IMG/VR virus record: IMGVR_UViG_3300030419_007010
Span: 1-64,000 of that record
From: a virus
Direction: 5' to 3' (one strand)
DNA length: 64,000 nucleotides
Both the position numbers and the translations under genes were made by a program. Under the pieces are notes generated by a model that was not told the DNA's origin, did not search any database, and was given only the letters and a program-made list of their open reading frames with translations. Shown piece after piece: positions 54,023 to 56,351 of the stretch (position 1 is its first letter; each line of letters starts with the position of its first letter).

Positions 54023-54424
54023 TTAATAACTTGTTGGTCCCGAATTTCTAGTCAATATTGGCTTAGATTCCTCTTTCTCTTGTGCCCAACTTGGAGTTGG
54101 AAAGTTTGGCACGGCTTCTTTACTTTTATCTAGTTTGTTTCCGTAGCCTTGTTCTTCGAGCGCAACTAATGCATCTCGAAGGTTTTGTGCTGCGTCAACA
54201 ACTTGTTCTGGTAATATGTCTAGTGGAAGCTCTTCTAAAATTCTAGAAGCTACTTTAACGTTATTATATACTGCGTCTGGATCTTCTTCTGAAGTGTCCA
54301 TAAGATCTGACGGGCCTAGGCCTTGGGGTTCTGGTGTGACGCCGGTGGCAATAGAGAACGGGCCGATAGTCTCTTTCAGTTCTTCTTTAATGATTTGTTT
54401 TAATCTTGTTTTAGTTATCTTCAT
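54023..54424 (-). CDS. Leader-tagged cargo protein 4 (true start likely ATG 54424)
   Basis: MKITKTRLKQIIKEELKE leader; GAGGAAGAG SD; overlaps the previous gene's end. Confidence 0.75.
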   Translation of the reverse strand: MKITKTRLKQIIKEELKETIGPFSIATGVTPEPQGLGPSDLMDTSEEDPDAVYNNVKVASRILEELPLDILPEQVVDAAQNLRDALVALEEQGYGNKLDKSKEAVPNFPTPSWAQEKEESKPILTRNSGPTSY

Positions 54425-54737
54425 TGATCTCTTCCTCAAGCGGCGCGTGAGCCGGCGTGGATCCGCGGGGGCGTTCGGCGCCGGCGAGAGGTTCTCCAAT
54501 CGATTCTGAGTCTATAAAATAAGAAAGTGTCTCTAGCATATCCCGCACAATTTTCTGAACCTCTTTTTCTGGCATATGAGGATGATTTTGGCGAAGCTTC
54601 ACGGTCAGCGCAGTACCGAGTTCGTGTCTAGTGGCTTCTGTCAAAACTAATTCAGTTTCTTTTTTAGAAGCAGAAGCTTCTACTAGATCTAGTTCTTCTT
54701 TAATAATTTCTTTTAGTCTTGATTTTGTTATTTTCAT
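54411..54737 (-). CDS. Leader-tagged cargo protein 3
   Basis: MKITKSRLKEIIKEELDLVE leader; TAATG coupling to the upstream gene. Confidence 0.75.
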   Translation of the reverse strand: MKITKSRLKEIIKEELDLVEASASKKETELVLTEATRHELGTALTVKLRQNHPHMPEKEVQKIVRDMLETLSYFIDSESIGEPLAGAERPRGSTPAHAPLEEEINEDN

Positions 54738-55066
54738 TATCTGGGAGCCCTATATGTATCTTCACCAGTGCGGGCGAACTCAGCATCACTCTTGGCGAAG
54801 GAACTAAGCCCATGTTTTCGTTTAAACTCTATAGCAATTTCATCAACCATCGTCTTAAGTCTTCCACCAGTAATAGATTTTCGAATTGTTTCTAAAGCCT
54901 CTTCTGCTGAAAGTTTTACTTGATATAACTCGTCGCGACAGGCTTCTACTGATGCTTGTGCGCGCTTCTTGCCAAATAAATCAATCTCGTTGATTTTCTT
55001 TTCAGCCAATACATTAGCTACTTCTTCTTTAATGATCTGTTCTAGTTGTGATTTTGTTATGTTCAT
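54737..55066 (-). CDS. Leader-tagged cargo protein 2
   Basis: MNITKSQLEQIIKEEVANVLAEKKINE leader. Confidence 0.75.
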   Translation of the reverse strand: MNITKSQLEQIIKEEVANVLAEKKINEIDLFGKKRAQASVEACRDELYQVKLSAEEALETIRKSITGGRLKTMVDEIAIEFKRKHGLSSFAKSDAEFARTGEDTYRAPR

Positions 55067-55413
55067 GATATTATTTGCTTAACTTATCCGTTATTATATC
55101 TACTAGATCTGCCCATTCAGCCGCCGGCGAGGACTTGCTCGGGAGAAGGATCTTCGCGCCTAGGGTATAAAGCAGGTTTTGTGCAAACTCTTGAGTTAAA
55201 TATTCCGGGAGTCCACCGCCCAAACTTGCGCCATCGCCGGTCGCGATGGAATAATAATCATTAAGAACTTCAGGATTTATTTTAGCTTTTTGCAAAATTT
55301 CTTCCGGGGAGGGCGGAGAACCAGGGGCCTCTCTTAAAATATTCTCTATTACTTCTTCTTTAATGATCTGTTCTAGTTGTGATTTTGTTATGTTCATGAT
55401 ATTATTTGCTTAA
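55019..55413. repeat. Exact 64-bp direct repeat (55019-55082 and 55350-55413) bracketing one cargo gene
   Basis: tacttcttctttaatgatctgttctagttgtgattttgttatgttcatgatattatttgcttaa is present twice with a 331-bp offset. Confidence 0.95.
55071..55397 (-). CDS. Leader-tagged cargo protein 1
   Basis: MNITKSQLEQIIKEEVIENILRE leader; late motifs at 55411-55417 and 55434-55440. Confidence 0.75.
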   Translation of the reverse strand: MNITKSQLEQIIKEEVIENILREAPGSPPSPEEILQKAKINPEVLNDYYSIATGDGASLGGGLPEYLTQEFAQNLLYTLGAKILLPSKSSPAAEWADLVDIITDKLSK

Positions 55414-56351
55414 GTAGAAAGCACACTCCTTAATAAATAGTTAGAACTATTCATAAGTATAGCATTTTTTTTGCGCTCTTCAAACTCGCTTTTGCTCATC
55501 TCGCCAACATCTGAAAATGGGAAGATATTTATCTTATAAACTTCAATCCCGTATTCCATCAAATTGTTGATCAATCTCAACGCTTTTTTCTCAACATCAG
55601 GATCCAAAGCGATATATATTGTTGTCTCGTTTGCTGCAAGTTCTTGAAATAATTTAGAGTTTTCTTTTAACGTCGAACCCAAAATAGGAATTGCGCTCGG
55701 TCCAGCAACAATGGCATCATAAACGCCTTCAACCAAAGTGACGCTTTCTTTCCAATTAACATATAGATGATTAAATATTATATCCTTCTCAACCGGCGGG
55801 TTCTTATACTTCATCCAATCGTCAACATATGTTCGAGAAACAAAGTAATTGCAATATCCTGTTAAACCAAAAGAAGGAACGATTATTCTATTTGCGTATT
55901 CTCCTTCTGAACAATATCCTATTTTCCATCGGACAATATCCTTTTCTGTTATGCCACGAGACTTAAGATATTTTCTTGCGGCCAGCGAGCCAATAGAGTT
56001 GTTTCCGTTGGCTAATGATATAAATTCTTTTGGCAAGCCAACTTGTTCTTCTAATGTTTTTGTTTCTTCTGTTCCGAAGATCGATTCTTCAAAATCGTTA
56101 ACATCAACAGAGCCATCCAATTCTTTCCAAGATTCAATCTGTTTGAAGTTGCCGAAGCGCCGGATGAGTCTTGAGATGTTTCTTCCACTATAATCACAGA
56201 TCCAACATTTGAAAGCATTCTTATCAACATTAACTGATAGCTTGTTTTTATGGTGCGTGCATTCTGGACAGCGAAAAAGAAACTCTTCGCCAGTTCTATA
56301 AAACCGGCCGAGGATATCAACTAGGATTCTTCTTTTTTCTGCTTCTGCCAA
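55410..56351 (-). CDS. dnaG: DNA primase (DnaG/T4 gp61-like)
   Basis: Zn finger CPEC..H...FKCWIC, YLKSRGI, RIIVP, KYKNP, TOPRIM LVEGVYDA and ALDPD. Confidence 0.9.
   Translation of the reverse strand: MAEAEKRRILVDILGRFYRTGEEFLFRCPECTHHKNKLSVNVDKNAFKCWICDYSGRNISRLIRRFGNFKQIESWKELDGSVDVNDFEESIFGTEETKTLEEQVGLPKEFISLANGNNSIGSLAARKYLKSRGITEKDIVRWKIGYCSEGEYANRIIVPSFGLTGYCNYFVSRTYVDDWMKYKNPPVEKDIIFNHLYVNWKESVTLVEGVYDAIVAGPSAIPILGSTLKENSKLFQELAANETTIYIALDPDVEKKALRLINNLMEYGIEVYKINIFPFSDVGEMSKSEFEERKKNAILMNSSNYLLRSVLST

Follow-up and report, generated by a model that had tools for sequence, protein, structure and literature searches.

Why would a phage place one and the same short peptide at the start of several small proteins which otherwise have nothing in common? 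The question is raised by four tandem genes at 54023-55397 of the window analysed here, i.e. the first 64 kb (positions 1 to 64,000) of the single viral contig IMGVR_UViG_3300030419_007010 (161,727 bp, 38% GC), on which nearly all genes lie on the minus strand. The encoded proteins begin with a leader of 16-22 residues of the consensus MK[IL]TKxxLKQIIKEE[LI], often continued by xx[VI]LxE and a linker rich in Gly, Asp, Glu and Pro, and then run into unrelated bodies. We propose that this leader, in an uncultured marine clade of the T4 superfamily, acts as a prohead- or capsid-targeting propeptide, working like the capsid-targeting sequence (CTS) of phage T4 but being non-homologous to it, a reading by analogy to which we assign a probability of about one half. 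Our analysis covers the shared leader, its conservation at the peptide level, its helicity in a structural model, a head module of the T4 type, the resemblance of the leader to a capsid motif and its restriction to viral contigs with a prohead protease of the Peptidase_S77 family (S77).

Four tandem genes share a leader and differ in their bodies

The first gene of the array, P0001 (55071-55397, minus strand, 108 amino acids (aa)), encodes the leader, then ILRE and then its unrelated body, and is followed on the same strand by P0002 (54737-55066, 109 aa), P0003 (54411-54737, 108 aa) and P0004 (54023-54424, 133 aa), each carrying the leader at its first Met. P0004 starts at the ATG at 54424 rather than at the upstream TTG at 54499, this ATG lying inside the 3' end of P0003 with an overlap of 14 nucleotides (nt). 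A six-frame scan and the translations show that all four tightly packed genes open with M[NK]ITK[ST][QR]L[EK][QE]IIKEE, confirming an earlier sequence-only reading of the window, which had reported four tandem genes with a common leader between a primase and a Mre11-Rad50 gene. A small leader profile detects five further leader proteins in the 161.7-kb genome, resulting in nine in total: P0005 (37826-38914, minus strand, 362 aa), located directly after the prohead protease gene, a second array at 139.9-141.5 kb, with three tandem genes of which one contains an additional, internal leader, and a 321-aa protein at 151.0 kb. The complete divergence claimed for the bodies also holds, as beyond residue 24 the nine proteins show no significant pairwise BLASTP similarity (best E 0.012, in a tiny database).

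The bodies resemble little else. No Pfam or PHROG family matches the array proteins, their bodies have no relatives within 1.4 Mb of related phage DNA, and homologue searches with P0005 and P0002 return only the query itself or leader-only matches and no named homologue. Structural look-alikes of the cargo in the Atlas are unnamed viral clusters only, with scores below 0.9, and the Atlas model of P0002 is poor (predicted template modelling score (pTM) 0.27). Extending the Pfam and PHROGs searches to the array proteins and 150 leader proteins yields essentially nothing, including no recognisable anti-defence domain in any cargo; one leader protein contains an FGE-sulfatase domain (2.2e-39).

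At the DNA level P0001 and P0002 share an exact repeat of 64 nt (55350-55413 and 55019-55082, respectively), composed of 16 nt upstream and the first 48 nt of the coding sequence, and outside of this pair the leader DNAs differ at synonymous sites.

The leader is conserved as a peptide and behaves as a module

A scan of IMG/VR with a degenerate DNA pattern for TKxxL[KE][QEK]II[KR]EE matches at least 120 loci. The information content, calculated over 253 distinct leader DNAs, amounts to 0.17-0.70 bits at the third position of the Ile, Thr and Leu codons, compared to 1.6-2.0 bits at first and second positions, and the DNA upstream of the leaders is unconserved save for a weak ribosome-binding signal. 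Since third codon positions are nearly free and the upstream DNA is not conserved, what is selected is the leader peptide and not a DNA site. Leader residues 1-16 are near invariant, which is in part an effect of sampling by the search pattern, outside of which lay M1, K2, [IL]3 and [LIV]16. Residues 19-22 tend to [VLI][LM]xE, followed by the stretch rich in Gly, Asp, Glu and Pro. AlphaFold2 places the leader in a helix from residue 5 onwards, with a predicted local distance difference test score of 92-95 over residues 1-20, and the hydrophobic residues 8, 11, 12, 16, 19 and 20 fall, by eye, on one face of it, the leader thus being modelled as an amphipathic helix.

The top hits of the leader profile carry 2-4 leader copies per protein. 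Internal copies usually keep the Met and are preceded by E-[GNS]-x-K, which reads like an in-frame ribosome-binding region, so that proteins with several leaders resemble either neighbouring array genes that have become fused or nested genes. In the second array, the first gene has a body sharing 46% identity over 92 residues with the second unit of P0056, a two-leader protein from elsewhere; units of leader plus cargo therefore behave as mobile modules that are joined or separated.

The leader core resembles a predicted capsid cleavage site in a T4-type head

The genome contains a head module in the order TerL (43319-44896), portal (41325-43316), three small conserved genes, S77 protease, P0005, P0006, a bS21 homologue and others, a gp22-like protein and a capsid protein of the Gp23 family. 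The protease (38917-39570, minus strand; PF03420, 1.3e-31), a member of the T4 gp21 family, probably starts at the ATG at 39549 and has its nearest cultured relatives among the cyanomyoviruses (approximately 42% identity). The major capsid protein (28626-30461, minus strand) matches PF07068 at 2e-72, and both assignments are supported by PHROG matches (phrog_207 and phrog_138). The phage hence possesses both the gp21-type S77 protease and the gp23-type capsid protein by which a T4-type head is recognised. The DNA of the contig matches no deposited phage. Directly before the capsid gene lies the candidate scaffold protein (30483-31577, minus strand), an acidic coiled-coil with 18 [LIV]xE sites whose start resembles that of T4 gp22.

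Capsid proteins of this phage and of eight relatives share, in their N-terminal part, a conserved [QE]LL[KR]E followed by x(4-5)-GDVEG, which aligns with the known cut of T4 gp23 (FLTE/AEIGGD); the LL[KR]E at residues 56-59 (30285-30296) is the part that coincides with this cleavage site. The most conserved part of the leader, Q-I-I-[KR]-E-E, resembles the capsid [QE]-L-L-[KR]-E. An [LIV][LIV][KR]E within the first 30 residues is present in only 10 of the 168 predicted proteins of the genome: six leader proteins of the two arrays, three head-module proteins (P0005, itself bearing the leader, P0006 and u273) and a 70-aa open reading frame (ORF). The start of the protease itself carries a similar LL[RQ]E, and u273 (40514-41335, minus strand), a conserved helical protein encoded between portal and protease, has LVKE at residues 18-21. 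The sequence-only reading had noted an [LIV]-x-E site following the leader. Such a site is present, with an [LIVM]xE ending at residues 18-24 in 168 of 237 leaders (71%), but the leader itself already contains I-K-E, the I-[KR]-E at residues 12-14 being near invariant. Judged from these motifs, I-[KR]-E and/or the downstream [LIVM]xE may be the sites cut by the protease. Co-folding of the leader, with an alignment of 78 rows, with the gp22-like scaffold, u273 and the protease scored 0.00, which counts neither way.

Two of the genes following the protease connect the leader to the head module. Leader copies had been listed at 38914 and 38491; both exist, yet they belong to one ORF rather than to separate genes, namely residues 1 and 142 of P0005. 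We consider P0005 a candidate prohead core protein. It has a sub-threshold match to the scaffold family phrog_194, and its assignment to the phage scaffolding protein family PF06810 was rejected, the 18.2 bits reached being below the gathering cut-off of 35. Looser copies had been suggested at 37815 and 473, of which the former is real at the family level and the latter only a faint resemblance. The gene at 37815 encodes P0006 (37396-37815, minus strand, 139 aa), whose leader-like N-terminus, with LIKE and IKE sites, reads as a leader altered by one small deletion and by an insert of five residues. Nine relatives likewise have P0006 directly 3' of the protease; its family comprises 1,379 clusters, all unnamed, and our searches found no named homologue for it. 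Its AlphaFold2 model (pTM 0.22) consists of four helices, being all-helical and devoid of a compact fold, a predicted non-globular architecture that would be scaffold-like.

Leader proteins are numerous, variable in position and confined to viral contigs

Searching 1.84 billion representatives of 50%-identity clusters with the leader-only profile returns 7,358 proteins with E<=0.001, of which 107 have E<=1e-10. Among the IMG/VR matches listed, there are at least 286 profile hits, 259 of them beginning exactly at a Met; the median leader protein is 107 aa long and the richest locus has at least eight hits. Ten large contigs with the same head module (TerL 47-71% identical) carry between 3 and 21 leader genes each. 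The sequence-only reading, which expected many copies per genome, nearly always N-terminal and with unrelated C-termini, did not foresee the internal copies.

S77 is encoded by 19 of the 24 leader-bearing contigs of at least 70 kb and by all five that are at least 90% complete. Among 50,697 deposited phage genomes, a tblastn search with the leader matches solely LR756508, a distant phage of 484 kb in which leader genes flank the S77 gene. In 596 Gb of prokaryote genomes the DNA pattern occurs at 20 loci, true N-terminal leaders being encoded solely on contigs of metagenome bins and the leader not being found in isolate bacterial genomes. One of these contigs, PBIO01000025.1 (L177) from a bin labelled Halobacteriovorax, has approximately 17 tandem genes in 8 kb with an Arg-rich form of the leader, MKITKRQLKRIIKEE, and is probably a phage contig binned with the bacterium. 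In four marine metagenomes the contig depth over the 45-nt leader DNA (54693-54737 and 55353-55397) is 10-25 times that of the flanks, the contigs continuing in many unlike ways on both sides.

Among relatives, leader genes are found between u114 and the protease (two genes each in two genomes), directly after the capsid gene or directly before TerL. Positions and numbers vary, and in Microcystis phage Mel-JY01 the interval between primase and Mre11-Rad50 holds a 57-aa ORF only; the leader genes thus lie at polymorphic (hyperplastic) loci, like the genes of T4-type internal proteins. No paper containing the leader strings was found in a full-text literature search.

A candidate late promoter precedes the array

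The sequence-only reading had placed a virion-gene motif, CTA(T/C)TTA, in front of the array, and this proved correct: two (A)CTA[TC]TTA copies (55411-55441, minus strand) lie 43 and 20 nt upstream of P0001, inside the end of the primase gene. The minus strand contains 34 copies of CTA[TC]TTA, 16 of which are within 100 nt upstream of a start compared to approximately 3.4 expected, and ACTATTTA is the most enriched upstream 8-mer, present in seven upstream regions compared to 0.8 expected. Sites of the form (A)ACTA[TC]TTA are located at 7556, 21059, 25846, 28556, 31619, 48739, 55440 and 55417 of the window and at 82059, 135777, 144228 and 155480 in the rest of the genome. The motif stands before the sheath, head-tail adaptor, scaffold/capsid and baseplate-wedge genes, one tail-fibre gene and the first array, and it also precedes an 810-aa gene heading the operon with the second array. 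In relatives it is found in front of 19 of 143 first-of-array leader genes, mostly 29-45 nt upstream, compared to 70 of 1,019 other ORFs. As all genes downstream of the motif whose function is known are virion genes, (A)ACTA[TC]TTA fits a candidate late promoter of the clade, unlike T4 TATAAATA, with the timing deduced from the genes behind it.

Comparison with known capsid-loading systems

The internal proteins of T4 form a diverse set in which the CTS alone is conserved (PMC3012670), and propeptides of 10-20 residues send T4 proteins to the core before gp21 removes them (PMC5694885). The CTS of IPI, IPII and IPIII was described by Mullaney and Black in 1996, as summarised in both of these papers. 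The T4 record shows ipIII next to ipII, the two being identical in their first 11 residues and first 21 nt before continuing into unrelated bodies, and ipI and a 54-aa ORF begin with MKTFKEF. The phage studied here shares with T4 a short N-terminal peptide on otherwise unrelated small proteins, tandem genes at variable loci, the gp21-type S77 protease together with the gp23-type capsid, and identical DNA at the starts of neighbouring genes, as in ipIII/ipII. By motif, its tag may likewise end in an [IL]-x-E that resembles the predicted cut site of its own capsid. The leader differs from the CTS in being longer (16-22 compared to 10-19 residues), in being almost invariant over very many proteins and distant phages with up to 21 genes per genome, and in repeating inside proteins. 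The analogy with T4 internal proteins drawn by the sequence-only reading is thus supported at the level of architecture, i.e. by S77, Gp23, the ipIII/ipII arrangement, the likeness to the cut site, the leader-like starts in the head module and the upstream motif, but not by homology to the CTS.

Giant phages offer a further parallel, as diverged proteins of SPN3US (gp53/gp54) and the inner-body proteins of phiKZ keep an identical N-terminus of 15 residues with protease motifs, processed at multiple sites by a prohead protease related to gp21 (PMC5694885). In contrast to the leader, those propeptides mostly exceed 100 residues, use A/S/G-x-E sites, occur on paralogues and have had their processing confirmed by mass spectrometry (PMC5694885). 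By analogy, the leader may also be likened to encapsulin cargo-loading peptides and to the helices by which scaffolds bind coat proteins, in that a short peptide directs unrelated cargo into a shell of the HK97 fold; encapsulin tags, however, are usually C-terminal, bind the shell directly and involve no protease step.

A proposed prohead-targeting model and its alternatives

We envisage that late in infection the leader would dock the interchangeable protein attached to it into the scaffolding core, alongside core proteins with the same or a related start (P0005 and P0006), and that the shell would close thereafter. S77 would then cleave the leader at I-[KR]-E (behind residue 14), at the [VI]-L-x-E further downstream or at both, and the mature body would either stay in the head and exit with the DNA or be degraded like scaffold. 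Targeting, cleavage, retention, injection and an anti-defence role of the leader proteins are what we infer from the observations above. It is reasonable to hypothesise a capsid-loading tag that is helical and differs from the CTS; injected anti-defence effectors are speculation. In a wider form, which we offer tentatively and with considerable doubt, an uncultured, abundant marine clade of the T4 superfamily and at least one huge phage of 484 kb would load a very large and fast-turning repertoire of orphan proteins into the capsid via one nearly invariant helical tag, to be delivered along with the DNA. The repertoire would comprise thousands of 50%-identity clusters, with as many as 21 genes in one genome and with some multi-unit polyproteins that S77 would cut apart, and another set would be marked by a second tag, MK[LN]L[FL]ENWR[KQ]Y[LV]NE.

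Several findings weigh against a prohead-targeting propeptide. The leader sequence cannot be aligned with the T4 CTS (MKTYQEFIAE, MKTFKEF) and its profile finds nothing at E<=1 in T4, Syn9, S-PM2, P-SSM2 or HTVC008M, all five being T4-type phages, nor did we find a cultured phage with the leader among these five or among the deposited phage genomes. Copies of the leader are also present inside many proteins (2-4 per protein), a recurrence not known for the T4 CTS. [LIV]xE is a short motif, common in Glu-rich helices, and the timing of the upstream motif derives solely from the genes downstream of it. An enrichment of leader genes in the head module was considered and dropped, since approximately 8 of 64 leader genes over ten genomes lie there, near the share of the genome which the module occupies, and the position of leader genes alone is therefore weak evidence. 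Finally, a tag that hardly varies between distant phages could be explained equally well by a conserved partner outside the capsid.

This last point leads to a different reading, in which the leader would be a helix for binding a partner or for oligomerisation in a cytoplasmic task unrelated to the capsid, e.g. docking diverse small proteins to a single conserved machine of the host or the phage, and the proteins would never enter the virion. A very conserved partner would account for a nearly invariant tag, and the position of the first array next to primase and Mre11-Rad50, the internal leader copies and the lack of enrichment in the head module fit as well. The same can be said of a weak PHROG match to the anti-repressor Ant family (phrog_847, E 0.0006-0.006) and of a low-confidence structural row with Bro-N in the Atlas, although these are the only signs of a Bro-N/Ant anti-repressor, which we rejected as Pfam gives no match to Bro-N or any other domain at E<=1. 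We judge the cytoplasmic task to be rather unlikely, given that conserved head-module genes have leader-like starts, that the leader resembles the capsid maturation site, that its upstream motif is common to virion genes and that S77 is present in all sufficiently complete leader contigs. It is improbable, in our estimate, that the leader proteins enter the prohead merely as auxiliary scaffold or core, to be degraded and expelled at maturation, with bodies serving as filler under weak constraint. Such a role would agree with the sub-threshold scaffold matches of P0005 (PF06810, phrog_194), the four helices of P0006 modelled without a compact fold, the poor model of P0002, the Gly-, Asp-, Glu- and Pro-rich sequence after the leader, the near absence of Pfam domains from the cargo and the resemblance of multi-leader proteins to multivalent linkers, but filler would hardly be kept between phages as the P0056 unit is, contain an FGE-sulfatase domain or require as many as 21 copies per genome, a number that seems excessive.

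The conserved start might also be mainly a handle for recombination or gene capture at the DNA level, or a translation-start cassette, encoding a peptide of no function. An exact 64-nt repeat brackets one cassette, many metagenome contigs match the 45-nt leader DNA alone with both flanks differing, and units of leader plus cargo are found fused and split. This reading nevertheless appears most improbable, because Ile, Thr and Leu codons have fixed first and second but nearly free third positions, because upstream DNA is not conserved beyond the weak ribosome-binding signal and because internal in-frame copies retain the peptide; recombination at the leader probably results from its conservation and does not explain it. 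Precursors of ribosomally synthesised and post-translationally modified peptides were rejected as an identity of the array proteins, the bodies of 85-300 aa having no short cores rich in Cys, Ser or Thr and the neighbours being primase and Mre11-Rad50 instead of modifying enzymes.

Should the leader be a packaging signal, sequence alone would label a large pool of unannotated proteins carried into their hosts by ocean phages, and these would be candidate counter-defence or takeover factors from a clade without a cultured member. It would also represent a second portable capsid-loading tag for T4-type heads. Whether or not packaging is the correct reading, the conservation of a 16-residue peptide on viral proteins that otherwise have nothing in common, counted as 7,358 cluster representatives, demands an explanation.

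Genomic surroundings and further observations

On one side of the array lies the gene of a DnaG-type primase (55410-56351), on the other that of Mre11-Rad50 (50797-53946, minus strand), fused into one 1,049-aa ORF with Metallophos and AAA_23/SMC_N domains. The location in a replication region stated by the sequence-only reading applies to these two genes, which form merely an island, with tail-fibre, terminase and other virion genes to one side and genes without a Pfam match on the other. Over its full length the Mre11-Rad50 fusion is 31% identical to its counterpart in Microcystis phage Mel-JY01, which together with huge uncultured phages provides its best relatives.

Within the head module, a homologue of ribosomal protein bS21 (37147-37383, minus strand; PF01165, 27.4 bits compared to a cut-off of 27; phrog_21469) occupies the same position in relatives. 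Relatives likewise keep, between portal and protease, a small hydrophobic protein (39585-39929, minus strand) that matches DUF1360 weakly, an odd site for a membrane-like protein. Between the core and the scaffold/capsid genes, the minus strand at 31661-36168 encodes two large proteins of 1,117 and 384 aa that contain repeats of a GDISGSGKIFN[VL]GGIETQG[DS]LG[AV]TGS-type unit; neither protein matches a family.

The second tag, here termed ENWR, starts four tandem and otherwise dissimilar genes on the minus strand at 136311-139006 of the genome (L001 2312-5007) and is also present at the C-terminus of the protein encoded at L001 7783-10215. ENWR-tagged proteins contain no Pfam domain. Two unannotated proteins encoded on the minus strand at L001 2312-3205 and 14973-16085, one of them ENWR-tagged, carry the HExxH-type motifs HELIH and HELVH. 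In other leader-bearing contigs the ENWR tag starts genes, often in arrays of three, with 20 of 24 regular-expression matches being N-terminal.

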